64,000 nt of DNA from contig CAVYJM010000006.1 of assembly GCA_963768855.1 (NCBI GenBank), forward strand, positions 224,001-288,000, given 5' to 3'. The notes below the pieces were generated by a model, which worked only from the letters and a program-made list of their open reading frames with translations, was not told the origin of the DNA and did no database searches. Positions 1-63,908 of the stretch are shown here, piece by piece. Every line of letters starts with the position of its first letter. Position 1 is the first letter of the stretch. The DNA is from an uncultured Thermoplasmata archaeon. Its GTDB lineage: Archaea; Thermoplasmatota; Thermoplasmata; RBG-16-68-12. A program made the translations under genes and the position numbers.

Positions 1-3000
1 ATCAGCTTCCCTCTTCGAGGCTTCCTCGAGGCGACCCGTCAGTTCCTTCTCCTTCGGCGCGAGGCTCGTCTCGCGCTCCCGGAGTCCTTGCTCGGTCTCC
101 TGGAGTTCGCTTCGCTGGGATTCGAGGTCCGCTGCGGTGCTATCGAGCTCCGCCTGCCTCGTTTCCATGTGGGCCGCCTGCTCCTCGAGGGTGGCTCGCA
201 CTTCCGCGAGATTCCCTTCCCTCTCCCGGAGATCTGTGTCCAGGCGGCGGAGCTTCACGGCATCCGCGTCCATCTTGGTTCGGGCGATGGTGAAGGCGTT
301 GACCATGTCTCCGAAGACGCGGGCACGGGCCTGAAGGTCCGCACGCGACTCGTTCGCGTCGGCGCGGTCGTTCTCCAGGGTCGTCTCCTCGGCGCGGGCC
401 TCCTCGACGCGTTGCTTGACGCGGTCCTCGAGCTTGTCCTGGATGCTGACAAGGAGTCCTCGGGCGAACTCGACCTCTCCGACGTCGGCGGGTCCGACCG
501 CGAGCATGATCAGGGAGAGCATGTCCCCCCGGACGGCGCGCGCATGGTACTTCGACACGCGGACGTCCTTCTCCACGGCGTTGAGGGCTCCCGCCTGGAG
601 GGCCTGGTCATACGTGACCTCACAGGAGGGATCCAGGGTGAATTCCCTGAGCAGCTGTCCGCGTTCGTCCACGAGGAAGGCCTTCGTTGGCCTCCAGCGT
701 CGTCGTTGTACAAACATGGCTACCACCATGAGCAAGCCGATGGGGGGAATGGCAAGGAAGTAGGGAGACTGCCACCACGGGGGAATGGGCGGGGCCGAGA
801 CGGTCACCCGGACGTCCGGGTCCGAGCCGGTCATTGTGAAGACGATGTCGCCCGAGTCGTTGACCGTCCCGTCCGCGAAGTCGGAACTGTCCTTCGTCAC
901 GTGGTACAGGAATCGCGAGGTGTTCCCGCCGATGGTCCACGTGATCGTCTGGGACGTTTCGCTGGACGTGTGCGTCCAGGCGTATTCGGAACCGGGGTTC
1001 CACGAAGTGAAGGCGGAGATCGTGACGAGGGCCGTTGTATCGCTGTTCGTGACCGTGAGTCCGGTGACGTTCACGGTCCCATACGCGATGGTTCCGTTCA
1101 CGGTCAGGCTGTTGAACGCGATGCGGTAGCCGGTCATGGTCAAGATGCCCGAGGCGTTCACGATCAGGCTCATGGCCGTCACTGCGGATGCGAGGGTGAT
1201 GGCCCCCGCGATCGTCAGGGTCGCGAATTGCTGGCCGGCGCCGAGCGTGATGGTCGTGCCGGCGCCGGTGAAGGTCGCGGACGAGCCGGTGGAGGTGAAG
1301 GCCGTCGCGGAGGAGGTGCCCCAGGAGCCTCCGACGGAGATCGTCGCGGAGGCGAAACTGAGGGCCGCGGCGCCGGATGAGGTCAGGTTGTCCTGGAACG
1401 CGACCGTGGCGCCGGTGAGGTTCAGGACCGAGGACCACGTGATGTTCGAGGTGAAGGTCGTCGTAATGCCCGGGTTCACCGTCAGGCTGTTCAGGGGTTG
1501 CGGAACCCGGATCGTCCCGCCGGACGCGTTGACCACGATGACGGAGCTGCCCGCGGTGAAGGCGCCTGCCGAGGTGTCCATCGCCCGGATCGTGAGGACG
1601 CTTCCGTTGGCGAGGAGCGCCCCGCCCGCCCGGACCGCCAAGGTGTCCGCGGTGATTGGGAGGTCCGAGCCTGCGGTGGTCACGGTGGTGGTCCCCGAGC
1701 CGCCTTGGACCGTGAGGGTGTGAACCTGCAAGGCGGAGCCTGTCAGGGTGAAGACGACGGTCGAGGCGCCGCCGTTGAACACGACCGCGTTGAACTCGGG
1801 ACCCGCGAGATTAGTCCCGGCGAAGGTCATCGTCTGGGACGAGGCCGTGTCGAACGTCACGCTTCCTGTACCCGCGGACCACGACGCCGAGGTCGAGCCG
1901 TTCGTCCAGCTTCCCGAGACCGTCCAGGCCTCGGAGCCGAAGGCGATGTACGAGGTGGCCGCGGAGATGTCGACGTTGCCCGTGATTGTGACGTCTCCGG
2001 ACGCGGAGGTCAGGTACCCCCCGGCGAGGGTCAGGTCGCCGTCCACCGTCAGGGGGTTGCTGCCCTTCGCAAGGCCGCCCACAGAGAGCGTCAGGGACGT
2101 CGCCGAGAGTTGCGTCGTCTGGGTGTACGCCCCGGAAAGATTCAGGGTCGCGAAGCTCTGCGCCGCTCCCAATGCGATCGTGCCCGAGGGGGCCGTGAGA
2201 GTCACCGTGGAGGTCCCGGAGCTGAAGGTGGACGCAGGCCCGGAGGTGTCCCAGGATCCCGAGACCGTGATGGATCCCGTCGTCAGGGACAACATGTCTG
2301 CCGCGGCGTCGTTCATGGTCACGGCGGACACGGAGATCGACGCGGTTGTCCCGATGAAGGCTCCGCCTCCGGAAATGACGAGGCTCGCTCCGCCTGTGAC
2401 GTTGTTGCCCGCCGTCGTCAAGGTCCCCGTGATGGCCAGGGAGCTGCTCACATCGATCGCACTGGCCTGTGTGACCGTGCCCGAGATCGTGAGGCTGTAG
2501 AAGCCGTCGGTGGGATCCAGGATCGTCAACGTGCGCGCCGTTCCCGACATGGTCACCGCGCCGGTGCCCTTCGTGAACGTCGAGCCGGATCCGGAGGTGT
2601 CCCAGTTGCCGCTCACCGTCCACGAGCCGGTCGTCATCGTGATTCTTCCGGAGACGCCCCCGGTCATCGTGACGTCGGCGACGGCAACGGCCGAGGCGTC
2701 TGCGGTCAGGATCCCGGAATTGCCGACCGTCAGGGAGCCTCCCGCGAGAGCGAGGTCCGCGGTCGCCAGGGTCGTGATCGAGCCCGCCGGATCTTGGATC
2801 GTCAGGGTGCCGCTCCACTTCAGGGAGTTGGCGCCGATTGTGAACGTGACCGCGCCGCTGACCGCGGTCGAGGCGAACGTGACGTTGTTGAACTCCTTGC
2901 CGCTGAAGCCCCCTAGGCTCATCGTCTGGGGCGTCGCGGAATTGAACACGACGGTCCCCGTGCCCGCACCCCAGTTCGCCGAGGTGCTGCCGTTGGACCA

Positions 3001-6000
3001 GGAACCGCTGAACGTCCACGTCCCGCTGCCCATCCGGAAGTAGGCCGTGGCGCTCGTGATCGAGGTGTTCCCTCCGATGCTCACCAGGGAGGCGGCCCCG
3101 GAACCGTCGAGGACCGCCGTGTCCGAGACGGTCAGGTTGCCCGTGACCGTGAGCCCGGCGCCGGCGGACGTTCCCACGGTGAGGTTCCCGCCCGCCAGCG
3201 TGAGGTTCCCGCCGACCGTGAAGTTGAATGTGCCGACCGCGATCGTTCCCGCCCATCCCGTGGTGCTCAGGGAGGCCATCGTGGCGTTCTGGTCGACCGT
3301 GACCGTACCGCCTCCGGAGTTCGCATCGAAGAAGGTCGCGCTCGCTCCGCCTGGAGCCGGGCAGCCTCCTGCGCCTCCCGAGGTGGCGGACCAGTGCGCC
3401 GAGTCGGACCAGTTGCCCGCGCCGCCGACCCAGTAGCGGGTTCCGCCGCATGGCGCGGCGATGATCACGTCGACCACGGGGTCGGACCCGAGCATGGTGA
3501 AGACCACCTGGCCCGAGCCATCCACCATGCCCGTCGTGAACGCCGTGCCATCCTTCGTGACGTTGAAGCGGTACCCGCTCGTGTTCCCGCCGATTGTAAA
3601 GGTGAGCGTCGACGTCCCGACGGTCGAGGCGTCCGTCCATCGGAACTCGCCGTCCAGAACCCACACGGAGAAGACGCTGACCGTCGTGAGATTGGTCGGA
3701 TCACTGTTCGTGATCGTCAGGTTGACCACGGTGACGACGCCGTCCACAATGCTCCCGGTCCCGGTCTCCGCGAGCCCGTTGAAGGTGAGGTTCTGTCCCG
3801 TCTTCGTCAGAACGGCCCCGTCTGTGATGCTCAGCGTCGCGAGGGCGGTCACGGTGGAACCAAGAGACGCCGTCCCACCGATCGTGAGATCATAGAACGC
3901 CTGCCCCGCCGCGAGGCGGATGGTCGCGGAGGTCCCGAGGAACGTCACCGTGGAGGTTCCGGCGGAGAAGGCCGAGCCGGCGCCCGAGGTGTCCCAGCTA
4001 CCGCCCACGCTCCATGACCCGGTGGTCACCGCGATCGTTCCGGAGGTTCCTCCGATCATCGACACGGCCGTGACGCTGACCGCCGACGCGTTTGAGGTCA
4101 GGATGCCTCCGTTGCCGAGGCTTATCATCCCGCCCGTCAATCCGAGATCGTTCGTGGCGAGGGTCGTGGTCCCGCTTCCTCCCACGATCGTGAAGATTTC
4201 CGCCCACACCACGCCGTTGCCGGCCATGGTGAACGTGACGGTGGAGGCGCCGCTGCTGAAGGTGAGGTTGTAGAACTCGGCTGCACCCCCGGGAAGTGAC
4301 GCGAACCGCATCGTCTGGGACGATGCCGAGGTGAAGGTCACCGTGGCTGTCCCCGCAGACCAGCTGGCGGAGGTCGAGTTGTTCGTCCACGATCCGCTCA
4401 CGGTCCACGTCTCCGATCCGAAGGCGATGTACGAGGATGCGGCGGAGACGGTCACGTTCCCCGCGATGCTGACCGCCCCGGACACGGACGTCAGCGCGCC
4501 TCCGGACAGGATGAGCCCGGCATTCGCGGTCAAAGCGTTCGCACCCTTCACGAACGTTCCGCCGGACAGGGTGAGCAGCCCGTTCGTGGTGAGCGGGCCC
4601 AGGAGGGTCCGCGTGCCCCCGCTGATCGTGACGGCGGCGAGGGCGGCACCCGCCCCGAGGTTGAGGCTGCCGGTGCTCGAGAACGTCACCGAGGAGCCCG
4701 TCCCGGTGAAGCCGGTCGCGGAGGATGTGTCCCAGCTGCCGGTGCTCATCGTGATGGTCGCGGACGCAAAGGTGAGGGTCGCGGCCCCGCTGGAGGTGAG
4801 GTCATTCGTCCCGAAGCTGATGATCGCGCTCGTCAGGGTGAGGGTCCCGCTCCATGCGAGCGGACCGCTAAACGTGGTGGAGATGCCCGGATTGACTGTG
4901 AGGTTGTTGGCGGTCTGCGTGAGGTTGATCGTCCCGCCCGAGGCGATCACGACCACGGTCGATGTACCGACATCGAACGTTCCCAGGTGGGTGTCGATGG
5001 AGGTGACGGTGATCGTGCACCCGTTCGCGGTCAGGGCCCCCGTGCTCGCGAGGACAAGTGCGACGGCCGCAATCGGGAGATTGGATCCGGAGGTGCTCAG
5101 GATCGTGTTCCCCGTCGGGCTCGCCGTGGAGTTCTGCACGGTGAGGGTGCCGCCCGCCCGGAGTCCGTTGGTCGCCAGGGTGTACGTGACACCGCCCGCC
5201 ACGCTCGCGTCGAATGTGACATTGCCGGCGAACTCCAGCGGCAGGTTCCCGAACGTCATCGTCTGAGATGTGTTGGATCGGAACGTGATCGAGGCCCCGA
5301 AGCTCCACGATGCCGACGTCGAGGAATCCGTCCAGGTGCCGTTCGTGACCGTCCAGGACCCGGCAGGCGACGAGGTGACGTATCCCGACCCGTTGTTCAC
5401 GGTGACGTTGCCCGTCACGATGACGAGGGATGCGTTCGACTTGAGGATTCCCGCGGCTCCGCTCACCGTGAGGCCCGCGCCGGCCGTGAGGGAGTAGTTC
5501 GCGGCGGTCGTGTCGAGCGTGCCGACGACGGTCAGCAGTCCGTTCGCGGTGAACTGGCTGCCGAGCGAATAGCTGCCCGATACGGTGACCGTCGAGAAGC
5601 TTTGCGAAGCCGCAGCCGTTACGGTCTTTCCTGCACCGGTGAAGGAGACGGTCGAGCCCGTTGACGTGAATGCAGTTACCGTGGACGTGTTCCAGTTGCC
5701 CGCGATGTTGACCGTTGCGTTGCTGATCGCGAGCGTCGCGGGACCCGAGGACGTGAGGTCGGAGTTGAACGTCGAGGTGGCCCCGGTGAGGGTCAGGACG
5801 CCCGACCAGCTGATCGCCGACGTGAACGTCGTGCTGACGCCTGGGCTCACGGTCAGGCCGCTCAACGTCTGCGGGACGTTGACCGTCCCGCCGGAGCCAC
5901 CGACGACGAGGGTGGACGTCCCCGGCGCAAAAGTCCCCAAGTGCGTGTCGATGGACGTGATGGTGATTGTGGACCCGTTGGCCGTGAGCGCCCCGCCCGC

Positions 6001-9000
6001 AACGACATTGAGCGCGGTGGCGCTGATGGCAAGGTTGGAAACGCTCGTGTTCAAGGTGGTGACCGAGGCGCCGCCGCCGAGGGTGAGCGTTCCGGCGATC
6101 GTCATTCCCCTTGCGGCCAGGGTGAAGGTGACCGCTGACGGCCCCGAGTTGAACGTCACGTTGTTGAGCTCGTTCCCGCTGAGGTTGGAGCCCGCGAACG
6201 TCATCGTCTGGGCCGATGCCGCGTTGAACAGGACCGTCCCGCCTCCGGGATTCCACGACGCCGAAGTGCTGGCGTTCGTCCAAGTCCCCGCAATCGTCCA
6301 GGACTCGGACCCGAAGGAGATGTACGAGGCGGGGGACGAGATGTTCACGTTGCCCGTCACCGTCACGCTCCCCGAGGAGGACGTGATGGCCCCGCCTCCG
6401 AGGGTCACGTTGCCGTTGATGGTGAGGACGTTCGTCCCCTTCGCGAGCGTCCCTCCATTCACGTTCAACGCGGCGGCGGTGATCGCGCTTCCAGCGGTCG
6501 CCGTGCCCGCGGAGATCGTCAGGATGTTGAATGCCTGGGCGCCGCCGAGCGTGATCGTCCCAGAGGCCGCGAAGCTGACCGTAGAGGTGTTCGGGTTGAA
6601 CGCCGCCCCTGCGGCGGTCGACGTCCAGTTGCCGTATACCGTAATGACACTCCCGTTGGCGGTCAACGTGCCGTTCGTCCCGAGGGTGAGGCTTCCGGCG
6701 GTGATGGTCAACGCGGCTCCGGAGGTGTTGAGGACCGTGTTGGCCGTCGGCGTTGCATTGGAGTTGAGAATCAGGAGCGCGCCGGCGATTCTCAGACCGT
6801 TCGTCACCATCGTGTACGCGACGCCGGCTGCAGCCGCGCTATCGAGGGTGAGGTTGTTGAACTCGTTCCCAGCCAGGTTGGTCCCGGCGAAGGTCATCGT
6901 CGCCGCGGAGGCGTCATTGAAGAGGATCGTTCCCGTCCCCGCTGACCAGGAAGCGGACGTGCTCAGGTTAGCCCACGAGCCGCCGATCGTCCAGGTCTCC
7001 GAGCCGAAGGCGATGTACGAGGCGGGGGAGGAGATGCTGACGTTTCCCGTGACGGTCCCAGACCCGGATGTGGAGGTCAGTGCTCCCCCGGACAGGGTGA
7101 GGGCGCCCGCAGCCAAGGTGAAGGTCCCCTTCGCAAGGAGGCCGGCCGACACGGTCAGGGTCGCCGTCACGGTGGTGTTGGCGGCGAGCGTCGCGGTCCC
7201 GGCCGACACGGTCAGGTTGTTGAAGGCCTGGGTCATGTTGATGGCCGCGGCGGCGGTGAAAGCGACCGTACTCGTCGCGGCGGTGAACGTGGCGTTCGCC
7301 GCGGTCACCGTCCAGTTGCCGCCGACGCTGATCGTGGATCCATTTGCCCGTAGCGTCCCGTTCGTCCCGATCGTCACGGATCCTGCGGCGATGCCCAGGT
7401 CGGCGCCCGAGGTGTCGAGGATCGTGTTCCCCGTGGGACCGACGACCGAATTGCGGATGGACAGGAGTCCGGACAGGGTGAGGCCGTTCCCGGCCATCGT
7501 GTAGGTGACGCCCGCGACCGCCGTCGTGTCGAAGGTGACTGCGCCTCCGATCCGTCCCGCTCACCTTGAACGTCATCGTCTGGCTGCTCGCGCTGCGGAA
7601 CGTGATGGGGGCGGGGAACGACCAAGAGGCCGAGGTCGTAGCGTTGGTCCACGAGCCGGTGACGGTCCACGCCCCGGCCCCCGTGCTGGTGATGTACCCG
7701 CTCGCGGCGACGCTCACGTTCCCATTCGCAGCGACGGCCGCGCCCCTCGAGGTGTAGGCTCCCAGGGCTCCGAGGCTCAGGCCGCCCAGAGTGGAACCGT
7801 AGTTCGTGGCGGTTGCGTCCAAGGCAACCACGCCGGTCGCGCCCGCTGCGGTGTTCCGAACCGTCAGGGTCCCGGCCGCCTGGAGCGCGTTGACCTGGGC
7901 ATAGGTGAAGCCGCCGACGACCGAGGAGTCGAGGACGAGGTTGTTGAACTCGCTCCCCGTCGCGGTCCAGAAGGTGAGCGTGGTGGCTCCGGAATCCACG
8001 ATCCGCACGGTTGACGAGGAGACGGACCAGCTGGCGGGGACTGAGATGTTGCTGTTCGTCCACGATCCGTTGATCGTCCAGGTCCCGGCTCCCGTGAACC
8101 GGACCGCCCCTCCGGCCGCGATCGTAACGTTCCCTGAAGTCGTGGCCATGCTCGCCTCCAGGTTCAGGACGCCGCTCGCGCCGATCGAGAGCGTGGATTG
8201 AAGGGTGAGGGTGAAGTTCGAACCCGAGGTGTCCAGGGTGCCGTTCACGGACGTGGCGCCCGACACGGTGACGTTCGAGCCCAGGGTGGTCGTCCCCGCG
8301 TTCTGGGTCAGGGTGTTGAAGGACTCGCCGACGCTCATCGTGAGCGTCCCGCTCGCGCCGAACACGACGGTCGAGGTCCCTTTGTTCCACACATGGTTGG
8401 CGGCGGTGGACGTCCAAGAGCCGTTGACCGTAATCGTGGAGCCGTTCGCGGTCAGGGTTCCGCGGCTGCCGAGGACAAGCCCTCCGGACGTGAGGGGGAG
8501 ATTCGAGGCGCCCGTCGTCAGGACCGTGTTTCCCGTGGGCGTGGCCGCAGTGTTCACGACTGTCAGGGTCCCCGCAATCCGGAGACCGTTCGTCGCCATC
8601 GTATAGGTCATGCCTGCGGCGGTCGTCGTGTCGAAGACCACGTTGTTGGCCTCGTTCGCTCCGAGGTTGGCAAAGGCCATCGTCGCGTTCGCGGGGGCCC
8701 GGAACGTGAGCGTGCCGGTCCCTGCCGACCAGTCGGCGCTGTCTGCGGTGTTGTTGGTCCACGAGCCCGCGATGGTCCATGCCGCGCTCCCGAGCACGAG
8801 ATAGGAGTTCGCGTCCGAGACGAGCACGGCTCCACTGATCGTGACGACGGATCCTTCGGATCTCAGGGCGCCTCGGGGGTTACCGAGGGTGAGTGACCCT
8901 GCGCTGAGGTTGTAGCTGCCCGCGGACGTGTCGAGGATTGTGGCGGCGGTGGCGCCCGCCGCCGTGTTCCGGATGGTTAGGGCGCCCCCGATCTTGAGGG

Positions 9001-11488
9001 AGGCATCCCCCGTGGCACCGGCCGCCATCATGTAGGTGATGCCGCCGGTCGACGTCGTGTCGAACGTCACAGCGCCGCCAAACTCGTTGCCCGCGAGATT
9101 CGAGCCGGTGAAGGTCATCGTTTTCGAAGCGGCAGCGCGGAAGGTCACCGCCGCCGCGAAGGACCAGGAGGCGGACGTGGTCCGGTCCGTCCAGAGGCCT
9201 GTGATGGCCCACGAGCCTCCCGTGTTCGTGATGTAGGCACTCGTCGCACCGATTGTGGCGTCGCCGTTGAGGGTGATCGTCGAAGCCCGCGTGTTGAATG
9301 CGCCCAAGGCGGATTCGGTCAGTCCGCCGGCCGTGACGGCGAGATTCCCCGCGGAAGTGTCCAGGATGACGGGCCCCGTCGCTCCCCCTGCGGTGTTCTG
9401 GACCGTCAGGACGCCACCGAGGTCCAGCGGGTTCGTCACCATCGTGTACGTGACGCCAGCCGCGGCGGTCGTGTCGAACGTCACGGCGCCGCCAAACTCG
9501 TTGCCCGCCTGGGCTCCAAAGGTCATCGTCTGGGCTGCCCCGGAGCGGAACGTGATCGGGGCGACGAAGGACCACGAGGCCGACGTGGACGTGTCCGTCC
9601 AGGATCCGGTGACTGTCCACGCGCCTCCCGCGTTCGCCACGGAGCCGGTGGCGGCGGAGACGTTGACGTTCCCGTTGACGGTGACGCGGAGGACTCCGAA
9701 TTGAACGCCCCCAGGTCGCGACCGTGAGCGCGCCTGCCGTGACGACCAAGTTGGAGGTGGACGTGTCCAGTCGCGTGGCCCCCGTGGCTCCGGCCGTGGA
9801 GTTGCGGAGAATCAGGGTGCCGGCCATCCGCAGTCCGTTCGTGGCCATCGTGTACGTCAGGCCGGCCGCGACACTCGCGTCCAGAGTGAGGTTGTTGAAC
9901 TCGTTCGTCGCGCCCGCTAGGTTGGCGAAGGTCAGCGTGCCGCTCCCGGCGTCCCGGATCGTGACCGTCCCGGTCCCCGCCGACCATGTGGCCGACGTGG
10001 AGTTGTTCGTCCACGTCCCGCTGATGGTCCAAGCGGACGTGCTCATCGTCACCACGGTTGCGGCGCCGAGGATCGTGACATTGCTGGAGATCGTGACGGT
10101 CGATCCCGGGGCAGGAAGGTTCCCTGGATCGTGAACGCGCCGTTCACGGTGAGGGGCCAGTTGTTGGCATTCGTCGTGTCGAGGGTTCCCGTGAAGCCCG
10201 TCATGTCGAGGCCGGCAATCGTGGTCGCCGCCGCGAGCGTCGTCGTCCCTGTCGGACTCGCGTTGAAGATGGCCAAGTCTGTCGCGGTCGGCGTGCATCC
10301 GCAGGATGCGCCACCGGAGGAGTTGGACCAATTTGCCGGGTTGCTCCACGCTCCACCCGCGCCGATCCGATAGCAGTTCGCTCCGCCGATGCTGCCGCAC
10401 GTCGGGGTGGCCACCACTTCCACCGCGGAGACGACCCACGTCGTCGCCGCGTTGGTCCAGGTGACCGCGGTCCCCGGGTTCGGGATGTCGGCGCCGGCGG
10501 CACATTCGTTGGAGCCCCCCCCTCCCGTGCAGTGCTGGATCGCCACGCCATACAGATCGGTCGCGGCCGCTCCGGTCCCAGTCACCGCGGTTGGCGGTAT
10601 GCCACCGCCTCCCTGCTGGATTGCCGCCACGGCGACGCCCAGGTTTCCGATCGAGATGGCTGACGTGAAGGTGATTGCCGCGTTGGTGGCCGTGTCCGTG
10701 TCGCTCGTTCCATTGATGAACGAACCGCTGGCCTTGACGCCTTGGAGGAGGATCGTGGCGCAGGACATCCTCGCGACTTGGCCTCCGGAAAGCGTGGCCG
10801 TCATCGTCTGGGCGCCGACCGGCACGCTGCCTGCGAACCCCCAGATCTCAGTCCTGACGAAGGTGCCGCCGTTCGCATCCGTGCTGGCTACGAGCGTGAG
10901 GCTGGCCGATCCGTACGTTACCGAGAGAAGAGTGAACGTCCCGCGTTCAGAGAGCATCACGAGGATCGCGTTGTCCGAGACCGCGGCGGTCTGGGATGTC
11001 GTACAGGTGTTCGTAGCCACGGTCACGTCGGTCACGGTCGTGCTGTCGACGACCACGGCCGCCCGCGCATCCCAGGTGAACAGGCCGAACACCCAGGCCG
11101 TGGCGGAGCGGACGGCTGCGCCCCAGTCGACCGGCGGGAACCACCGGTCGATGGCGTGGGCCACGCCTGCCGCGAGGGACTCCGGCTCCTGGCTCGGATG
11201 GGTGAATACGTTCAGGTTGGGCTGGAGATACCCCCTCTCGGCAAGCTGCATGGTCGGATACGAGGACCGAGCGGGTCCGAAGTACGTCAGATTCCAGAAC
11301 GGTTGCAGATCGTTGCCGCCGAACAGGAGGCGCTGGAGTTCGGGAGTGAGGGCGTGACCCGGGATGTGGAGGCTCCCGTCCGGCGCGCGATACGGAGCCA
11401 GCGGGTCCGTAGAAACGTGACTTACGAGTGCAAGTCCGGCCGTCGCCAAGAGGATGCAGGCGAGGAACGCCGCGCTCGCGGGTCTCAC
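1..11488 (-). CDS. Giant membrane-anchored beta-helical surface protein/adhesin (>3,800 aa) with cytoplasmic longin-like domain and coiled coil; runs off the left edge; interrupted by frameshifts near 10115, 9718, 9686 and 7550
   Basis: Stitched from minus ORFs 10049..11578, 8880..10505 (part), 6968..9640 and an unlisted open frame ~7550 to <1. That frame was translated at several points, and its continuity is inferred from the constant frame of the plus-strand shadow ORFs. N-terminal hydrophobic stretch VRPASAAFLACILLATAGLALV (GTG 11488). Thr/Gly/Asn-rich repeats (WTxxGxWTxxxxSASWS, NEFGGAVTFDTT, NEFNNL). Two Trp motifs (RYWVGGAGNWSDSAHWS ~3430; YRIGAGGAWSNPANWS ~10350). TM PWWQSPYFLAIPPIGLLMVVAMFV followed by QRRRWR at ~690-775, then EREGNLAEVRATLEEQ-type heptads. 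Confidence 0.85.
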
Positions 11489-11692: not shown

Positions 11693-11699
11693 TATTTAA
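11693..11699 (-). promoter_or_regulatory. TATA box upstream of the giant surface protein gene
   Basis: Minus strand CTTAAATAGG in an otherwise GC-rich intergenic region; the same motif precedes the SRP RNA. Confidence 0.5.
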
Positions 11700-11754
11700 G
11701 AGAAGTCGGGTGGTTATCTGACCTGATTCCCTAGGGACGCGGGGAGGGTCCCGA

Positions 11755-13086
11755 CTATCGGGCCGGGAGGTTCCCGGACAGGCGGGCTTCGAGGGCTTCG
11801 AGCTCCGCGGCGCGCCTGCGGAGTTTCTCCTCTCGATCGAGCAGCTCCAGAGCCTTCTGCTGGATGATCTTGACACGTCGCTCGATGTCCTTGCGGGCCT
11901 CCTCGCTCTCGGCCGGGGACACTCCCGCGTCACTCGGGGCCGCCTTGGCGAGGGCCCCCTCGCGCGTGATCAGATCCTGCTCGCGTTTGGCGAGGGCCAT
12001 GTCCCGCTCCTCCATCGCCATCTCTCGTCCGCGGATCTTCTCCTCGCGGTCGAGCATCTCGATAGCCCGACGCTGCAGGAACTTGCGTTCCTTGCCGAGC
12101 TCCGACTTGACCGTCTCGAGCTCCTGCGTCGCGGCCGGAGAGGAGACGCCGGATGCCTCCGGAGGCTTGTGGGAGTTGACGAGCCGTTCTTTCGCCATCG
12201 CGGCGAACCTCTGGCTGAGCTCTTGGACGCGTCCCTCGATCGCGACGCGCATCCGCTCTGCCTCCGCCTCGCGGGCCGCCGCGTCCGCGCGCTCCCTGGC
12301 AATCGCGTCGGCGGCTTCCTTGGATTGCTGCTCGAGCTGGCGCACCTTGTCGGAGGCTTCGCGGTATTTCGATTCGAGCTCGTCCCGAGCGACCAGGAGA
12401 GCCTTCCGCTCGTCCTCGAACTGGTGGCGCAGATCCGTGAGCGCCTTGGCGTCCGCAAGATCGTGATTCTCGGCCGCGGATGCGGCCAGATGTTCGCTCA
12501 TCTCGAGCGACTGCCGTGCCCGGTCCACTCCGCTCGCCACGCCCTGCTGCATCTGGGCGACGTAGTCGGCAAGGGCCTTGAGCCGGTCCTTCTGACGGGC
12601 GAGCTCCTCGCCCCGCCCGTTCAGGTTCGCCTCGTCCGCCTTGAGCTGGACCTCGAGCTTGGCGAGTTCTTTCTCCCTCGCCTCGAGCTGCGCTTGGCGG
12701 TCGGTCAGCGCGGCATCCGGCTCGGCGTTCGCCTTCGGCGGTTCGAGGGCCCGGCCGGCCACGGTCCGCTTGGCCTCCGCGGCAAGATGGGCGTCTGCAG
12801 CGGTCAGGAGGGTCGCGGTCCAGTCCATGTCCTCGGGCGCCAGCTGTCCGCGCGAAAGGAGCACGAACACGAACTTCCCGCTCTGGAATGCGGTGAAGAC
12901 GTACTCGCCGACGAAGAGGGCCTCACGGTCGCCGATCCCGTCATCCGGGAGGACCTTAAGGAAGTCGTTGTAGTCAATGGGGCAGTCCGAATCCAGGACG
13001 TACTCCCCGTCCATGTCCCCCATCTCGTTGAGGACGTAGATCTTCTTCAGTTGTGCGCGCGTGGCTTTCTTCGAAGGAGGCGCCAT
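11755..13086 (-). CDS. Cytoplasmic protein: N-terminal longin-like domain plus long coiled coil (paralog 2)
   Basis: ORF 11755..13161; ATG 13086 (MAPPSKK) preferred as start. KIYVLNEMGDMDGEYVLDSDC domain followed by E/K/R/A-rich heptads. Confidence 0.8.
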   Translation of the reverse strand: MAPPSKKATRAQLKKIYVLNEMGDMDGEYVLDSDCPIDYNDFLKVLPDDGIGDREALFVGEYVFTAFQSGKFVFVLLSRGQLAPEDMDWTATLLTAADAHLAAEAKRTVAGRALEPPKANAEPDAALTDRQAQLEAREKELAKLEVQLKADEANLNGRGEELARQKDRLKALADYVAQMQQGVASGVDRARQSLEMSEHLAASAAENHDLADAKALTDLRHQFEDERKALLVARDELESKYREASDKVRQLEQQSKEAADAIARERADAAAREAEAERMRVAIEGRVQELSQRFAAMAKERLVNSHKPPEASGVSSPAATQELETVKSELGKERKFLQRRAIEMLDREEKIRGREMAMEERDMALAKREQDLITREGALAKAAPSDAGVSPAESEEARKDIERRVKIIQQKALELLDREEKLRRRAAELEALEARLSGNLPAR

Positions 13087-13233
13087 GAGCACGGATGCGA
13101 GGGCGGGGCCGAGTGCCCTGAAGACGATACCGGTGACCAGGGTCTCGCGAACCCCTTGCATGCGCTGCCCGCCTCGGCGTCGCGAGGGCTGGACCTCGCG
13201 TTGCCATCGTGCAAGAATCGACTCGCCAGAAGG

Positions 13234-13241
13234 TTATTTAA
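13234..13241 (-). promoter_or_regulatory. TATA box upstream of paralog 2
   Basis: Minus strand CTTAAATAACC in the intergenic gap. Confidence 0.45.
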
Positions 13242-13299
13242 GAGGGGGCCCTTGGTTATCGGGGCTGAGAAACTCTGCCTGCAGACGGGGGATTTTCTC

Positions 13300-13971
13300 T
13301 CAGGCCGGGGTCGGGGGGAGGCCGGCTGCGGCGCGGGGGTCCTTCGCCTTCTCCTCCTTCGCCGGGAGGAACGTGCGCTGCATCTGGACCGCGTAGTCGC
13401 GGAGCGTCACGAGCTTCGCCTCCCGCGAGCGGATGTCCGCCTCGAGTTCGTTCAGCCTCGTCGAAGCGACCCGGATCTCCGATTCCATGGTTCCTGCGCG
13501 CTGCTCGCGTCGGGCGAGGTCGGACTCCCGCTGTGCGATCTCCTGCTCCCGCGCCCGCAGGTCCAGATCCTTCTTCGCGAGGAGGGGCTCGATCATGGGC
13601 GGGATGTGGATGCGCGCGGCCGCGAGGAGCGTTCCCACCGAGCCGCGCTCTTCGATGCGGGGCACGCCGTGGGTGAGGATGACGAACCAGAGGTCGTCCA
13701 CCTTGAACGGGGTGAAGGCGTACTCGCCCTGGTAGAAGCTGACGAGGTGGCGCAGGCCGCTCACGGGCACCGAGCGGACCAGGTCGGAGTTCTCGAGAGG
13801 GCAATCGTCGTTGAGCGCGTACTCGCCGATGAGGTTGCGGTTCGAATCCATGACGAAGATCCTCTCATAGTCGATCTGCGGGACCGTCTTGGGGCCCCGG
13901 ATCGAGAACCTCGTCGGGACAATCCCGCTCGCGTTCCGAGTCTTCTCATCCTGCTCGCTGACCTCTCGCAT
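13300..13971 (-). CDS. Cytoplasmic protein: N-terminal longin-like domain plus short coiled coil (paralog 3)
   Basis: ORF 13300..14022; ATG 13971 (MREVSEQ) preferred. RIFVMDSNRNLIGEYALNDDC domain aligns with paralog 2, followed by REQEIAQRESDLARRE heptads. Confidence 0.8.
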   Translation of the reverse strand: MREVSEQDEKTRNASGIVPTRFSIRGPKTVPQIDYERIFVMDSNRNLIGEYALNDDCPLENSDLVRSVPVSGLRHLVSFYQGEYAFTPFKVDDLWFVILTHGVPRIEERGSVGTLLAAARIHIPPMIEPLLAKKDLDLRAREQEIAQRESDLARREQRAGTMESEIRVASTRLNELEADIRSREAKLVTLRDYAVQMQRTFLPAKEEKAKDPRAAAGLPPTPA

Positions 13972-14107
13972 GGAACTACGCCCTCCTCTCCCACTTTGGC
14001 GCGGTGCTTGGAAGATAGGCACACGGGGTCATTTGAGCGTTTCTATTGAATTCGCACGTTCTTGTTATCGAGCCTGGGAACATCACCGGCCGAGACCGGG
14101 GAATCGC

Positions 14108-18635: not shown

Positions 18636-21600
18636 ATGGCCCAAGCCATCGAACGCCGGTCCCGGCGAAGCCTCGCAACCGTCCTTCTCCTCCTCGGGGC
18701 GGCGCTCACGCTCACGCCGATTCTGGCCCCGTCCGCGGTCGCTGCGGGCACGACGTACCTGTCCGGGAACGCATGTGCCTCGAGCACCACTCCGACCTGG
18801 GTGAACACGACCACGTACGTCCTAGCCGGGAACGTGACCGTCCCCGTGGGTTGCACGCTCACCATCCAGTCGGGCACGGTCATCAAGGCCGACCCCCAGG
18901 TGCGCCTCTACCTCAACGGCGTGCTCGAGGCGAACGGCACCGCTACGAGCTACATTTCGTTCGACGCGAACCGTACGAGCCAGGTCTGGGGCGGCGTCCA
19001 GTTCAACAAGACCTCCCAGGCCTCCTACCTCCAGTACGCCTCCCTGCACATGGTGGACCACGGCGTCCGCGTCGTCGGAACCCCGCTGTTCTGGGGACCG
19101 ACTCTTTCCCATCTCGACATCGACCATGCGATCGTCGGGGTCGAGTTCCAGGGGGCGAACGCGACGCTGTCCTGGAGCCGAATCAACTACACCACGATGG
19201 CCGTCCACGCCTCCGATGGCGGCTACGGCGGTTACCCGATTATCGTCGCGAACACGATCACGACCGTCCTCTCGAACCCCGCCATCGCCATCTACGCGAC
19301 CAACCTGGTGCAGCCGACGATCCAGTCAAACTGGATTACCTGGGTGAACGGAACGGACGGCTCGGCGGGCGGGGCCTTGCTGACGACCGGCCAGGACGGG
19401 GGCGCGGCCGTGGGCATCCTGGTCACCGGGGGCACCTGGCCAATCGTTGCCGGGAATACGATCAGCCAGGTCCGCGGCGGCCGGGGAGGCGCAGGAGGTT
19501 CGCCTCTCATCTCCGGCAACGGCGGCCGCGGTGGGAAGGGCGGGGACGCGAGCGGAATTGTGATGGCGAACGCCCAGAACTCGAGGGCCCAGACCAACGA
19601 CATCACGGGCGTCGTCGGCGGGCATGGCGGGAACGGAGGGGATGCGAGCGGCCTGGGCACCACCGGCGGCGCGGGTGGTGCGGGCGGCACCGCCATCGCG
19701 ATGGAAGCCCTCGACAACACGGTCACGGGATGGTGGTTCTACAACGACGCCATCGGGATCAGCGGCGGATCCGCGGGAGACGGCGGCGGGGGTCCCCTCT
19801 CGGGCGCCGGTGGGTCCGGTGGCGCCGCGTACGCTCACTTCTTCCTTCAGAACATGGCGGGCAACGCCAGCAACAACCTGGCCCAGACCCTCGTGGGCGG
19901 ATACGGCGGGAACGGGTCCGTCGGCGGCGTGGGCGGGGAGGTCGGCGGCGTCTGGATGGCCGGCATGGGTGGCAGTGGCATCGTGGGCAGCAACACGATC
20001 GCGGGACTCACCGGAGGCCAGGGCGGTGCGGGAGCTCAGCCTACGGCAGGCGGCGGAAACGCGACCGCGCTCCTCCTGATCGGGGACGCAGGCAAGTACA
20101 ACACCACGACCGTCCGGGGCAACACGATCAACGGGATCACCGGAGGCGTTGGGGGCGTCGGCAGCCGCGGCGGCTCGAACGGGGGAGTCGCCACCGCGAT
20201 CGGCGCGGTCTACACGCGCGTCGTTTCGTCTGGGAACACGATCCAGGCGATTACGGGGGGTCAGGGAGGCAGCACGGGTCCAACCTGGACGAACGGCCAG
20301 GGCGGTTCCGCCACGGCCTACGCCGTTGCCCTGACCCCGTCGAGCTCCTCGTCCCAAGATCGGGTCCAGTCCGTCACGAAGGGGCTGCCCGGGTCCGGCG
20401 GGACCAATCCGTCTCCGGCCCAGGCGATCGGCTTCTACGTCCTCGGGAACGCGACCCTCACCTCGGTCGCCTCCCTCACGAACGACACGTTCGCATCCAT
20501 CGGGGAGCGCGACCTCTTCCTCGAGAACTACACGAGGACGACCGCGCTCAACACGACCTTTGCGCCGAGCACGCTTTACGTCGGGCCTGCGGCGAACCTG
20601 ACCGTGCAGAACTTCCTGGCGGTCAAGGTCCTCTGGCCCAACAACGTCACCGCGGTCGCGGGTGCACGGGTCGCCGTCGCGGACAGTGGGGTCGAGGTCT
20701 ACAATCGGACGAGCTCCACGGGGAATCTGAAGTGGATCGTCGTGACGAATCGCGTCTACATCGACAGCGCGATCCCCTTGTGGAACACGACGCGGGTGAC
20801 GGTTAGCTATCTCACCTACACGTTCGGGAACAACCCGCGGACCGTGAACATGACCACGAGCCAGACCCAGTACTTCACGATGATCGACCGAACGCCTCCC
20901 ACGACGGCCATGACCGCCCTGTCCGCGTTCACCACGACGAGGACGTTCACCCTCCACTACTCCTACTCGGATGGCTTCGGAGCCGGAGTCACCAGCGTCA
21001 CGATCTGGGACCGTGTGAATGGGAGCACATGGAACACATACGCAATCATCTCCGTCACCGGCTCCGGGAGCGGGCAAATCTCGTTCACTGCGGCCTCCGA
21101 TGGTCTCTACGAGTTCGCCGCGACGGCGATCGACGCCGCGGCCAACCAGCAGACCCCCGTCCCGCCGACGGCGAACCAGACGTGGACGATCGTCGACACG
21201 ACGAAGCCCGCGTCCCAGGCGACCGCGCTCCCGGCCTGGGAGACGTCTCTCTCCTTCCTCGTGAGCTGGGGTCCCAGCCCGGGCACGACGGACATCGCCT
21301 CGTACACCGTCCAGTACAACAGCACGGGGACGTGGGTGACGTGGCTCAGCTCGACGCTCCTGACCTCCTCCACGTTCACGGCGACGAGCCAGACCGTCTA
21401 CCAGTTCCGGACGCTCGCCCGGGACTTCGCGGGCAACGTCGAGGTGAAGACGGGCAACGACACGTGGACCCTGGTCGACTCCGTGGTCCCGACCTCCGCG
21501 GTCTCCGCGCTACCTAGCTATGAGACGATCGCGGTCTTCTCCATCGCCTGGGGTCCGACGGCGGGCACCTCGGACGTCGCGAACTACACGGTCCAGGTCC

Positions 21601-23495
21601 GCACGGATGGCGGCGCATGGGTCACGTGGCTCTCCGGCGTCACGAACACCTCGGCCACGTTCACGGGCGTCAATGGCCACTGGTATGCCTTCCGCTCCCT
21701 CGCGACGGACGTCGCCGGAAACGTCGAGACGAAGGCGGGGAACGACACGTGGACGACCGTCGACACGAGCCCGCCGGGCTCCCTCGTCGCCTCCCTCCCC
21801 TCCTACGAGACCTCTCTCTCCTTCACCGTCTCCTGGAGCCCCGAGGCCGGGGTCACGGACATCGCCTCGTACCGGATCGAGTACAACCACGGGGCCGGAT
21901 GGGTGTCCTGGCTCGGGGACACCACCGCGACCTCGGCCACGTTCAGCATCGTCGCCCTCGGAATCGTGAGCCCACAGGGCAACTATGCGTTCCGCTCGGT
22001 CGCCACGGACCGCGCCGGGAACGTCGAGACGAAGACGGGCAACGACACGTGGACCGTCGTGGATACGATCGTTCCTACGTCGCTCGTATCCGTCCTGCCC
22101 GCATACGAGACGACCGCGGCGTTCACGGTCTCCTGGAATCCCACCGGGGTCACCTCGGACGTACAGGGCTACACCCTCCAAGTCAGCGCCGACGGCGCCG
22201 CCTGGGTGAGCTGGTTCTCCGGGGCCACGAACCGGAGCGCGACGTTCACCGGCGTCAACGGCCACCGGTATGCCTTCCGCTCCCTCGCGACGGACGTCGC
22301 GGGCAATGTGGAGACCAAGTCCGGGAACGACACGTGGACGATCGTGGACACGACCCCGCCCTCGTCTTCCATGAACGCCCTCCCGCTCTACGAGACCGCC
22401 CTGACGTTCCCGGTGAACTGGGGTCCTGCTCCCGGGACCGCAGACGTGGCGACCTGCGATGTTCAGCTCAGCTTGGATGGCGGCACCTGGACCACGTGGC
22501 TCTCCGGGGTCAACAACCGGTCCGCAGTCTTCTCCGCAGCGAATGGCCACCGGTACGCCTTTCGTTCTCTCGCGACGGATGTCGCAGGCAACGCCGAGGC
22601 GAAGTCGGGAAACGACACGTTCACCTTCGTGGACGCGACCCTGCCGACCGTCGTGCTCGATGCGCCGGAGGGCGCGGGCGTCGACCCGGCTGCCACGCTC
22701 ACGGTCACGTTCAGCGAGCCCATGGACGAAGGGTCCGTGGAACAGGCGTTCTCCCTGTCGCCCAGCATCGATGGCGCCTTCAGCTGGAATGCTGCGGGGA
22801 CCGTCCTCACCTTCACCCCGGCCCGAGCCCTTTCCGCCGGGACGTCGTACACGGTCGTCATCACCCCGGGCGCGAAGGACCTGGCCGGCAACTCCCTGGG
22901 CACGGTCAAGACGTTCACCTTTTCGACCGCGGGCTCGTCGACGGCCGCCGGTTCCTCGTTCGGGGACTGGTGGCCGCTCCTCCTAGCCGTCGTGGTTGGC
23001 GCGATCGTCGCCGTCCTCGTCCTCCTGCGTCGCCGCGGGTCCGCGGCCCAGGAGTTGGCCTCGAAGCCCGCTGCCCCGGCGAGCCCCGCTGCCGGGACGG
23101 AGATCGACGACATCTTCCTCCTCTACAAGGACGGCATCCTGATCAAGCACGAGACCCTGCGCCTGCGGCCCGACATCGACACGGACATCCTGAGCGGCAT
23201 GCTGACCGCGGTCCAGCAGTTCGTCAAGGACTCCTTCCAATCCGAGGACGAGGGCGAGCTGAACGAGATCACGGTCGGTCAGATGCATCTGCACATCGGC
23301 CGCGGCAAGTGGCTCATCCTGGCCGCCCGCGTGGCGGGCGGGGACGTCACGACGATGAACGAGCAGATCCGCAAGGCGATCCAGGACATGGAGGACCACC
23401 ACTGGGACCAGCTCGAGGACTGGGACGGGGACATGGCGCTCTCGAAGGTCCTGGGGCCCTACCTGAAGCGGCTCATCCGCGGCGACTACACGTGA
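18636..23495 (+). CDS. Large surface protein (1619 aa): signal peptide, Gly-rich beta-helix, FN3/Ig-like repeats, SbsA-type Ig domain, TM, cytoplasmic longin/roadblock-like domain
   Basis: Signal LATVLLLLGAALTL...AVAA; GNTIxxITGGxGG repeats; five to six ~100-aa repeats ending in GNVExKxGNDTWTxVD; VTFSEPMD Ig motif; TM WWPLLLAVVVGAIVAVLVLL followed by RRR; tail IDDIFLLYKDGILIKH...DILSGMLTAVQQFVKDSF. Confidence 0.9.
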   Translation: MAQAIERRSRRSLATVLLLLGAALTLTPILAPSAVAAGTTYLSGNACASSTTPTWVNTTTYVLAGNVTVPVGCTLTIQSGTVIKADPQVRLYLNGVLEANGTATSYISFDANRTSQVWGGVQFNKTSQASYLQYASLHMVDHGVRVVGTPLFWGPTLSHLDIDHAIVGVEFQGANATLSWSRINYTTMAVHASDGGYGGYPIIVANTITTVLSNPAIAIYATNLVQPTIQSNWITWVNGTDGSAGGALLTTGQDGGAAVGILVTGGTWPIVAGNTISQVRGGRGGAGGSPLISGNGGRGGKGGDASGIVMANAQNSRAQTNDITGVVGGHGGNGGDASGLGTTGGAGGAGGTAIAMEALDNTVTGWWFYNDAIGISGGSAGDGGGGPLSGAGGSGGAAYAHFFLQNMAGNASNNLAQTLVGGYGGNGSVGGVGGEVGGVWMAGMGGSGIVGSNTIAGLTGGQGGAGAQPTAGGGNATALLLIGDAGKYNTTTVRGNTINGITGGVGGVGSRGGSNGGVATAIGAVYTRVVSSGNTIQAITGGQGGSTGPTWTNGQGGSATAYAVALTPSSSSSQDRVQSVTKGLPGSGGTNPSPAQAIGFYVLGNATLTSVASLTNDTFASIGERDLFLENYTRTTALNTTFAPSTLYVGPAANLTVQNFLAVKVLWPNNVTAVAGARVAVADSGVEVYNRTSSTGNLKWIVVTNRVYIDSAIPLWNTTRVTVSYLTYTFGNNPRTVNMTTSQTQYFTMIDRTPPTTAMTALSAFTTTRTFTLHYSYSDGFGAGVTSVTIWDRVNGSTWNTYAIISVTGSGSGQISFTAASDGLYEFAATAIDAAANQQTPVPPTANQTWTIVDTTKPASQATALPAWETSLSFLVSWGPSPGTTDIASYTVQYNSTGTWVTWLSSTLLTSSTFTATSQTVYQFRTLARDFAGNVEVKTGNDTWTLVDSVVPTSAVSALPSYETIAVFSIAWGPTAGTSDVANYTVQVRTDGGAWVTWLSGVTNTSATFTGVNGHWYAFRSLATDVAGNVETKAGNDTWTTVDTSPPGSLVASLPSYETSLSFTVSWSPEAGVTDIASYRIEYNHGAGWVSWLGDTTATSATFSIVALGIVSPQGNYAFRSVATDRAGNVETKTGNDTWTVVDTIVPTSLVSVLPAYETTAAFTVSWNPTGVTSDVQGYTLQVSADGAAWVSWFSGATNRSATFTGVNGHRYAFRSLATDVAGNVETKSGNDTWTIVDTTPPSSSMNALPLYETALTFPVNWGPAPGTADVATCDVQLSLDGGTWTTWLSGVNNRSAVFSAANGHRYAFRSLATDVAGNAEAKSGNDTFTFVDATLPTVVLDAPEGAGVDPAATLTVTFSEPMDEGSVEQAFSLSPSIDGAFSWNAAGTVLTFTPARALSAGTSYTVVITPGAKDLAGNSLGTVKTFTFSTAGSSTAAGSSFGDWWPLLLAVVVGAIVAVLVLLRRRGSAAQELASKPAAPASPAAGTEIDDIFLLYKDGILIKHETLRLRPDIDTDILSGMLTAVQQFVKDSFQSEDEGELNEITVGQMHLHIGRGKWLILAARVAGGDVTTMNEQIRKAIQDMEDHHWDQLEDWDGDMALSKVLGPYLKRLIRGDYT
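20890..22640 (+). repeat. Tandem ~300-bp intragenic repeats encoding FN3-like domains
   Basis: Recurring DNA such as gccttccgctccctcgcgacggacgtcgc (~21688, ~22272) and aacgacacgtggac at ~295-bp spacing. Confidence 0.8.
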
Positions 23496-56093: not shown

Positions 56094-56222
56094 GGTTTGC
56101 CTGCACCATCGGAAGACAAAGGTCCCGCGGGCCTAAAAGGAGCCCCGGGGGGATGGGCGAAAGTGGTGCGCGTCGACGGAGGGAGGCGAAGCTTCTTGCC
56201 CTGCGGTTCCTTCGTCGCGCCG

Positions 56223-56627
56223 ATGGACCTCCCTGAGGAGCTTGAGGACCTCCGCCGCTTCCACGGCCACCTCGGCATCTACGTTACCCTGGGCCTGCGC
56301 ATGGGGGCGATCGGGAAACGCACCCTCGGCACGTACAAGGGACTCCGCGCCACGGTGCGGACCGTCCCGAAGCCGCCGATGATGTGCGTCGTCGACGGAG
56401 TCCAGTTCGCGAGCGCCTGCACGATGGGCAAGGGCAACATCGCGGTCGAGCCGGCCATGGAGCCCGAGGTGACCTTCGAGAAGGAGGGCCGGCGGCTCAC
56501 GATCTCCCTGAAGCCCGGCCTGCGCGAGCGGATCGACGGCGAGATGTCCCACGAGACGGAGCTCGAGCGGTCCGTTCACTACTTCCAGGTGCCCGAGGAC
56601 GAGATCTTCGACGTCCGCACGGGTTGA
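56223..56627 (+). CDS. FmdE-family protein
   Basis: RFHGHLG...LGLRMG, CVVDGVQFASACTMGKGN; ATG 56223. Confidence 0.85.
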   Translation: MDLPEELEDLRRFHGHLGIYVTLGLRMGAIGKRTLGTYKGLRATVRTVPKPPMMCVVDGVQFASACTMGKGNIAVEPAMEPEVTFEKEGRRLTISLKPGLRERIDGEMSHETELERSVHYFQVPEDEIFDVRTG

Positions 56628-56632
56628 CGCCG

Positions 56633-61933: not shown

Positions 61934-62025
61934 CGAAGCCTCGGTTCCGGGGAGGTAAGATGCGGGGCTCGCCACATTAGGCTTTTGGCCCGAATCCGGA
62001 CACGCGTCGCGGTCGCGAGGAGCGT

Positions 62026-63568: not shown

Positions 63569-63573
63569 GGGGA

Positions 63574-63884: not shown

Positions 63885-63908
63885 GGGAAAGCCCAACCGA
63901 GGCCATCC

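Follow-up and report, generated by a model that had tools for sequence, protein, structure and literature searches.

The stretch of DNA analysed here (hereafter, the window) comprises 64,000 nucleotides (nt) of an uncultured Thermoplasmata archaeon, namely positions 224001-288000 of contig C6 in a genome assembly (G000) of 2.87 Mb that contains 24 contigs, has 66% GC, and carries a contamination estimate of 7.7%. The domain of life of the contig is fixed as archaeal by an archaeal signal recognition particle (SRP) RNA (RF01857, 192.8 bits) at window positions 63573-63885 on the minus strand. At the left end of the window, three related genes follow each other on the minus strand, to which all coordinates of this gene cluster refer: a small soluble paralog of 240 amino acids (aa; 13300..14022), a mid-sized soluble paralog of 468 aa (mid paralog; 11755..13161), and a giant gene that begins at 11488 and runs out of the window. 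A sequence-only reading of positions 1-11488 had described the giant as an adhesin-like surface protein that is fused via a single transmembrane helix to a cytoplasmic longin-like domain and a coiled coil.

The minus-strand frame of the giant is uninterrupted from window position 7560 to 1 (2,520 codons). As the sequence-only reading had it, this frame leads without a break from the last beta-sandwich of the ectodomain via the transmembrane helix and an alpha/beta domain into heptads that leave the window, and the peptide quoted there is present in the frame. When the contig was extended leftward, as had been advised, the same frame, heptads included, continued for another ~3.8 kb (3,815-3,818 nt) up to a stop codon at C6:220182-220184, giving an intact downstream frame of 3,792 codons from stop to stop (11.4 kb). 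No stop or frameshift separates the transmembrane helix from the cytoplasmic domain, either here or in more than 50 homologs with the same one-frame fusion.

The claims of a single giant protein over positions 1-11488 and of a length above 3,800 aa stood in part: the gene is open from 7560 to 1 and beyond, but its 5' third is split, so that the span 11488..1 is spread over three frames. The GTG start at 11488 matches Met1 of the intact 4,781-aa homolog P0005 (tblastn), and an alternative ATG start lies at 11578. P0005 aligns collinearly with four pieces of the giant, i.e., 11488-10106, 10103-9708, 9685-7550, and 7536 onward. Piece A (10106..11488; 81.6% identity to P0005 residues 1-461 by tblastn) contains the GTG start, an N-terminal hydrophobic signal or anchor with a hydropathy peak at residues 3-9, an N-terminal region of ~330 aa, the first copy of a Cys-rich YxxGxGGxW motif, and the start of a beta-helix. 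Piece B (9708..10103; 85.6% identity to P0005 residues 463-594) is a beta-helix repeat of 132 aa in a second frame, and piece C (7550..9685; 75.4% identity to P0005 residues 603-1314), which returns to the frame of piece A, adds 712 aa of such repeats. Once five bases are restored from GTG 11488 to the stop, the conceptual full-length giant measures ~5,103 aa; the length above 3,800 aa thus holds if the four breaks are read through, while the single open frame counts 3,792 codons.

The membrane topology of the giant was assessed by hydropathy. A single transmembrane helix, YFLAIPPIGLLMVVAMFV (709..762), is followed on the cytoplasmic side by QRRRWR, and the W and R residues that flank it are conserved across 54 sequences (alignment A1). 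Over 19-aa windows, hydropathy exceeds 1.8 in this helix, at the N-terminus, and in one beta-helix core segment only. With an N-terminal signal or anchor, one internal transmembrane helix, and a basic cytoplasmic flank, the giant has the profile of a single-pass, type I-like membrane protein. When pieces A-C are counted in, the conceptual ectodomain has 91 N-x-S/T sequons (2.57 per 100 aa versus 1.77 expected from composition) and the cytoplasmic part has 6; the enrichment is on the N-terminal side only and would fit an exposed, N-glycosylated exterior.

Behind the transmembrane helix, a cytoplasmic domain of ~70 aa (481..693; residues 30-100 of P0004) was delimited by alignment A1 and AlphaFold2. 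It is modelled with a predicted local distance difference test (pLDDT) score of 87-90 over residues 31-100, so that a folded domain does follow the helix; structure prediction and Foldseek, both suggested at the outset, bore out the longin-like domain, with longins as its best structural matches. The topology is beta-beta-alpha-beta-beta-beta-alpha, strand first (DSSP: E30-38, E43-48, H57-62, E73-75/78-84, E88-95, H100 onward), and the last helix continues into the tail. Seven residues (E46, L49, C53, Y78, L93, G96, and L110) are invariant in the 54-sequence alignment, both soluble paralogs included. In an exhaustive structural search, longins came out on top: AP-2 mu (9pwb_M) matched with Z 8.3 and a root-mean-square deviation (rmsd) of 2.4 over 87 residues, followed by AP-4, AP-3, sedlin, synbindin, zeta-COP, and VAMP7 (longin rows: Z 6.8-8.3, rmsd 2.4-3.5), and MglB, Ragulator, Asgard Roadblock, and Rag C-terminal domains ranked below these (Z 6-7). 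Foldseek returned the same families at expectation values (E) of 0.014-0.1 and with high probabilities, and the nearest neighbours in the ESM Atlas were clusters of the archaeal paralogs, followed by eukaryotic AP mu/sigma (Clat_adaptor_s).

The modelled domain is called longin-like in fold and, as sequence methods connect it with neither group, is not classed as a member of Longin or Robl_LC7. It has its topology in common with longin domains such as those of AP mu/sigma, zeta-COP, sedlin/TRAPPC2, synbindin, VAMP7/Ykt6/Sec22, and SRX. Unlike these, it has no sequence similarity to longins, is tethered to the membrane by a transmembrane helix, passes with its last helix into a 1,400-aa coiled coil, and is found in an archaeon without known endomembranes. 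The Roadblock/LC7/MglB/LAMTOR proteins (PF03259) form a related alpha/beta sandwich and account for many Foldseek rows at probabilities of 0.9-1.0. The giant's domain differs from them in the absence of an N-terminal helix, since the transmembrane helix is followed by a short basic linker and then by beta-1 at residue 30.

Roadblock/LC7 members are typically dimeric GTPase platforms, and MglB, Ragulator, TRAPP, AP sigma/mu, and SRX have the fold class to which the giant's domain is assigned. This fold class is the starting point of a first alternative, in which the giant would be a signalling receptor whose longin-like domain docks a small GTPase, or serves as its guanine nucleotide exchange factor or GTPase-activating protein, and thereby couples the surface fibre to it, with the coil scaffolding effectors. 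The genome does encode 18 strong Ras-family GTPases (PF00071, E <= 1e-15; e.g., C6:749275-749769 and a tandem at C7:106450-108233) and 7 Roadblock proteins, and the invariance of E46, C53, and Y78 in all three paralog families suggests a specific binding or chemical site. However, Ras-family genes are present in 40 of 40 relatives of the order (4-19 per genome, and 9-19 in genomes that are at least 70% complete), whether or not the giant is present; GTPase copy number is independent of the giant, and a phyletic link is therefore missing. Of 14 well-known control genomes, Methanosarcina alone has PF00071 matches at the same threshold, which makes the Ras-family expansion an order-wide property of this non-Asgard archaeal lineage, and the possibility that the expansion tracks the giant was ruled out. 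Furthermore, no GTPase gene adjoins the cluster here or in the loci of relatives that were examined (the nearest Ras match is ~89 kb away), sequence similarity to Roadblock proteins is absent by hhalign, and a rigid single-pass fibre has no evident means of signal transmission. A GTPase platform is, on these grounds, considered quite improbable.

A comparable arrangement was seen in a second surface protein of the window, a 1,619-aa protein (18636-23495, plus strand) with Big_5 and fn3 repeats, one transmembrane helix, and a cytoplasmic alpha/beta domain of ~125 aa. Small Thermoplasmatota proteins (0.92-0.95) are the language-model neighbours of the latter, and Asgard Roadblock/LAMTOR2-like clusters are a weaker lead (0.86); hhalign of the profile of the giant's domain (A2) against it gave a probability of 0.6%, i.e., no sequence relation. 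DUF11 surface proteins of Thermoplasmatota, similar in fold, occupy rows 8-9 of the Atlas fold results. It may be more widely true that surface proteins carry longin- or roadblock-like modules on their cytoplasmic side.

The last helix of the domain runs into a coiled-coil tail that occupies window positions 1..483 and continues left of the window to the stop, ~1,430 residues in all. The cytoplasmic coiled coil of the sequence-only reading is thus real and extends far beyond the more than 140 aa visible in the window. The tail is rich in E, A, L, R, Q, and K and contains only 3 prolines in ~1,430 aa. Its autocorrelation peaks at lags of 7, 14, 21, 28, 35, and onward, and its hydrophobic Fourier spectrum peaks at 3.50 residues (29x the mean) with a harmonic at 2.33. 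In comparisons with 34 full-length homologs, 19 of the 29 distinct indels are multiples of 7 (sizes 7, 14, 70, 91, 98, 105, and 112), against ~4 expected by chance, and six further indels are stutter-like, being 4 mod 7. The length of the tail past the domain is mostly ~1,240-1,390 aa (commonest, 1,392), while that of the ectodomain ranges from 1,055 to 3,930 aa. By these patterns, heptad phase and length of the tail are under selection. A C-terminal motif, LDREEKLRKKEEEL..LA.QLGV, is conserved in almost every complete homolog, and the core KKAL-x-LDREEKLR is present twice in the giant of the window, 94 residues apart. At the coiled-coil rise of 0.148 nm per residue, the rod would be ~200 nm long if the coiled coil is continuous.

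The three prolines of the tail are located at residues 242, 347, and 452 of P0004 (L001:4185-8780, minus strand), an exact spacing of 105 residues (15 heptads), and each is part of an L-x-P-[KR]-E sequence. A super-repeat of ~105 residues, or regular kinks in the proximal rod, may lie behind this pattern.

A Pfam-A scan of the 1,532-aa cytoplasmic part gave no family, and the precomputed Pfam labels on homologs are coiled-coil families, i.e., PF27881 CRWN_N and PF28019 HmpF. A long uninterrupted heptad rod is what the tail has in common with plant CRWN, cyanobacterial HmpF, crescentin, FilP, Scy, and lamins. The matches to CRWN_N and HmpF reflect coiled-coil composition, and those proteins are soluble or peripheral, whereas the rod of the giant is the tail of a surface protein. 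The automatic Joint Genome Institute (JGI) name 'chromosome segregation ATPase' is an artefact caused by the very long coiled coil, and an SMC/Rad50 identity was rejected, as no ATPase head, hinge, or zinc hook was detected by Pfam. Unlike in SMC/Rad50, the heptads of the giant keep their phase all the way between membrane and C-terminus, and the rod begins with a transmembrane helix and a longin-like domain.

The same architecture was looked for in related genomes, as had been recommended, and was found in the more than 50 one-frame homologs mentioned above. Of 24 congeneric genomes, 22 have the combination of transmembrane helix, domain, and tail, and so do 3 of 6 other families from this order; the open frames that contain it reach up to 4,508 aa, and 51 database proteins of 2,161-5,462 aa share it. 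When 1.84 billion cluster representatives were searched with a profile, only 123 proteins were retrieved at E up to 1e-3, comprising giants and soluble forms of 100-600 aa. The homologs of the giant belong to metagenome-assembled genomes (MAGs) from soil, sediment, and wetland that are labelled Thermoplasmata, Methanobacteriota, or Methanomassiliicoccales, many of them 'EA_' genomes. All named genomic matches are in Thermoplasmata-type MAGs except for a single contig of 1.7 kb, whose assignment to a Paceibacterota bacterium probably reflects the mis-binning of a fragment. The family is confined to Thermoplasmata MAGs, mostly of the order RBG-16-68-12 (Ca. Angelarchaeales), to which the 'EA_'-type genome set has been assigned in GTDB (PMC9038741). 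The words coiled, adhesin, and S-layer are absent from the text of that paper, and full-text searches (Thermoplasmata giants and coiled coils; archaeal longin or roadblock proteins with transmembrane helices and coiled coils; PMC9038741) retrieved no description of the family.

Two further sets of sequences bear some resemblance to the family. Several long proteins, such as P0077, P0096, P0103, P0112, and P0120, match the profile at positions 5-43 only, in 4-10 tandem stretches; these positions correspond to the first beta-hairpin (KAFLVDE..G.L.REF.LD), and the proteins probably represent an unrelated hairpin repeat family. In the genome itself, a soluble frame of 1,168 codons (C15:96532-100035, plus strand) combines a domain of the mid-paralog type with a coiled coil of ~1,000 aa that is closely similar to parts of the giant's tail, the KRALDLFDREEKLR motif included. 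The encoded protein may represent a fourth, chimeric member of the family, or may originate from a co-binned strain, given the contamination estimate.

The ectodomain of the giant spans ~3,500 aa and is rich in T, A, G, and S; its main-frame part (781..7536) consists in translation of long T/S/A/G-rich repeats. A SW-x-STSASW motif recurs at spacings of ~137 or ~230 aa, the Cys-rich YxxGxGGxW motif heads each super-repeat (with its second copy in the main frame), and two beta-sandwich modules in the main frame each end in FTM-x-GSDP. The last 434 residues (799..2100) were modelled with AlphaFold2 (alignment A3, 22 homologs; mean pLDDT 95.6, predicted template modelling score 0.89) as a parallel beta-helix followed by an eight-stranded beta-sandwich. 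The model contains ~40 short strands in a solenoid of stacked rungs that has the geometry of a right-handed parallel beta-helix, and the best Foldseek rows in the PDB are all of the beta-helix class (HK620 tailspike at E 8e-3, Hbp passenger, VacA p55). The ectodomain had been described earlier as Ig-like, which is borne out for the terminal module, a beta-sandwich, but not for most of the ectodomain, which models or reads as beta-helix. A Pfam-A scan of the ectodomain and N-terminal region gave no meaningful match and no catalytic domain. Neither an archaeal S-layer domain (Pfam) nor a C-terminal PGF-CTERM signal was found, and the C-terminus of the giant is the cytoplasmic coiled coil (...LGVEAKS).

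Tailspikes, Hbp, VacA p55, and fungal Awp adhesins have a long beta-solenoid like that of the giant, at E of 8e-3 to 0.4 and template modelling scores (TM-scores) below 0.3, so that what is shared is a fold class and not demonstrated homology. The giant differs from such proteins in its anchoring, which involves a C-terminal transmembrane helix and a giant cytoplasmic tail and not a beta-barrel, a sortase signal, or PGF-CTERM. Two types of ectodomain are found on the common tail, namely, the all-beta-helix type of the giant in the window and a type of ~2,800 aa with DNRLRE, ConA-like, disaggregatase-repeat, and cadherin-like domains. P0008 and P0009, whose ectodomains contain DNRLRE, ConA-like, and disaggregatase-type domains, are 65-66% identical to the giant over the 1,500-aa tail and have zero detectable similarity to it in the ectodomain. 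Judged from these alignments, the exterior is exchanged and the cytoplasmic module retained.

These properties also have a bearing on a second alternative, according to which the giant is an ordinary surface coat protein or adhesin, with all of its biology in the ectodomain, a tail that is merely a long anchor or spacer, and paralogs that are functionally unrelated to it. The beta-helix and beta-sandwich modules with their many sequons resemble adhesins, tailspikes, and autotransporter passengers; the swapping of ectodomains among close relatives is what diversifying pressure would lead one to expect; and several other giant surface proteins are encoded in the same window. It is, however, the tail and the domain that are conserved, and not the ectodomain, and heptad phase and tail length are kept across 1,400 residues. 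A simple anchor would not require ~4.3 kb of coding sequence. In addition, the paralog cluster, with its common C-terminal motif and common promoter-like motif (see below), points to a cytoplasmic assembly. We consider it unlikely that the giant is an adhesin of this plain kind.

The two soluble paralogs carry the same domain as the giant. In the mid paralog it is located at residues 39-128 (63-152 of the stop-to-stop frame; alignment A4), is followed by a coiled coil, and matches the A2 profile with an hmmsearch E of 2e-29; in the small paralog it is followed by a short coiled coil (E 2e-25; alignment A5). Pfam-A gave no meaningful match for either of them. The mid paralog and the giant also have the C-terminal motif KIIQ-x-KAL-x-LLDREEKLR in common. 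The gene order small paralog, mid paralog, giant on one strand is found in this window and in 8 relatives in which the region is visible. By 10-mer count, the TATA-box-like sequence CTCTTAAATA occurs twice in the 64-kb window (0.13 expected), at 11693..11702 upstream of the giant and at 13235..13244 upstream of the mid paralog, i.e., both times 5' of family genes, which suggests separate but similar promoters for these two genes. A complex prediction for the domain of the giant (A2) with that of the mid paralog (A4) scored 0.02 and was used for neither side of the argument.

The breaks in the 5' third of the giant were located by three-frame reading and by DNA alignment to the relatives L013, L014, and L015. 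Break 1 (10105-10111) is a 1-nt deletion that leaves C4G3 where the relatives imply C4G4. Break 2a (9708-9712) is a 1-nt deletion with G5 for G6, and at break 2b (about 9685) one G is missing (GCG-TC); both are 1-nt gaps relative to L014 and L015. Break 3 (7547..7553, at 7550) is a 2-nt deletion (AT), with GGATCGG in place of GGAATTCGG in L013, and relatives read GGAATTCGG or GAGTTCGG at this site. Each of the four lesions is a loss of bases; G runs or the AATT of a GAATTC site are the setting of three, and the fourth is a lone G. In their correct frames, the broken pieces have zero in-frame stops and retain 75-86% identity to P0005. Contigs from metagenome runs that contain only ~1/3 of the sampled words, and that may not stem from the source sample, were aligned to positions 7300-10300 and covered 7550 only, and not the sites about 10105, 9710, and 9685. 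At 7550, an independent wetland contig (X2; 1,908 nt, 18 differences in 1,036 nt, 98% identical) carries the missing AT.

The deletions could be real, in which case the gene would be a recent strain-specific pseudogene or would give an N-terminally truncated, signal-less product from the ATG at 7497. The clustering of four deletions in 2.6 kb, against 165 kb of other coding sequence without a frame change, fits this alternative, and the frame-clean rest of the genome speaks against a generally error-prone assembly. Nevertheless, the lesions have the look that is typical of consensus errors, being deletions throughout and falling in three cases into short base runs or a GAATTC site; premature stops are absent from the correct frames, and the broken pieces have kept their conservation. 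Moreover, the 11.4-kb downstream frame is wholly intact, the near-identical environmental contig is intact at the sole site that it covers, and intact orthologs exist in many genomes. Real decay or truncation is regarded as doubtful, and the four deletions are probably local consensus or polishing errors in a strain-variable gene with internal repeats. Phase variation or programmed frameshifting was also considered and is unlikely, as it would need four separate deletions that are all in the off-state, and the orthologs are encoded in one frame.

Taken as a whole, the giant belongs to a conserved, undescribed family of giant single-pass proteins, which are tentatively proposed, at a little short of an even chance, to act as a trans-membrane structural tether or membrane skeleton. 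The sequence-only reading had spoken of a trans-envelope receptor or anchored scaffold; its architecture of giant ectodomain, one transmembrane helix, folded domain, and coiled coil was recovered, while the functional role is still inferred, the sub-membrane skeleton and the part played by the paralogs being a best guess from architecture and synteny. In this proposal, two giant chains would pair at the longin-like domain and along a coiled coil in parallel orientation. The longin-like domain itself sits directly under the membrane, with its C-terminal helix running into the in-phase heptad rod, and this coiled-coil rod of ~200 nm would lie beneath the membrane. The exchangeable, glycosylated beta-helix fibre may be part of an outer coat or adhesive surface, and the two soluble paralogs may join the sub-membrane coiled-coil assembly via the common domain or the C-terminal motif. 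A more elaborate version describes an exo-/endoskeleton of Angelarchaeales and their relatives, in which dimers of the giant would tie an exchangeable, glycosylated beta-helix coat to a sub-membrane lattice of rods of ~200 nm that the paralogs extend or cross-link by means of the common domain and the C-terminal LDREEKLR motif, with Ras-like GTPases of the expanded set perhaps regulating the longin-like module; this version is speculative and rather doubtful.

Several findings weigh against the proposal of a tether or skeleton. A Pfam-A hmmscan of the isolated domain at E up to 10 returned 0 families, longin and PF03259 included, and hhalign of A2 against the seven PF03259 Roadblock proteins of this genome gave a probability of 0.3%. 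The longin-like call on the model relies on moderate fold scores, in that a Z of 8.3 falls in a range that a merely common arrangement can also reach and the best Foldseek E is 0.014. With respect to the integrity of the gene, only one of the four break sites is backed by an independent contig. Lastly, 133 other genes (55,006 aligned aa) show zero frame changes relative to a congeneric genome, which makes four deletions within 2.6 kb a strongly local anomaly that real decay would explain too.

Very large surface proteins are frequent in the region of the window. Two more giant secreted proteins, of 1,747 aa (33450-38693, plus strand) and 1,947 aa (56133-61976, minus strand), both contain subtilase S8 domains together with Ig-like, glucodextranase-B, and fn3 repeats.

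Giant surface proteins of prokaryotes normally depend on a short signal for anchoring, and cytoskeletal proteins with long coiled coils are, as a rule, soluble or peripheral. The giant unites a surface fibre and a long internal rod in one membrane-crossing chain. Its parts are all of known classes, and their fusion, in which an invariant core of cytoplasmic longin-like domain and 1,400-residue rod comes with soluble paralogs, was not found in Pfam or in the full-text literature searched. In eukaryotes, membrane-spanning chains couple an outer matrix to a long internal rod in nesprin/KASH-SUN and in integrin/dystroglycan with their adaptors. The giant would be analogous in the idea of its design, but there is no homology, and domains and topology differ. 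The signature domain is without a Pfam model and offers a clean target for structural and cell-biological study. With this family, a membrane-tethered longin-like module would be present outside Asgard archaea and eukaryotes, in a lineage with 9-19 Ras-like GTPases per genome. Should the giant prove to be a mechanical tether or membrane skeleton, it would reveal the envelope organisation of an abundant, uncultured group of soil archaea, and, if the exo-/endoskeleton version holds true, it would be a prokaryotic analogue of the eukaryotic linkers between matrix and cytoskeleton.

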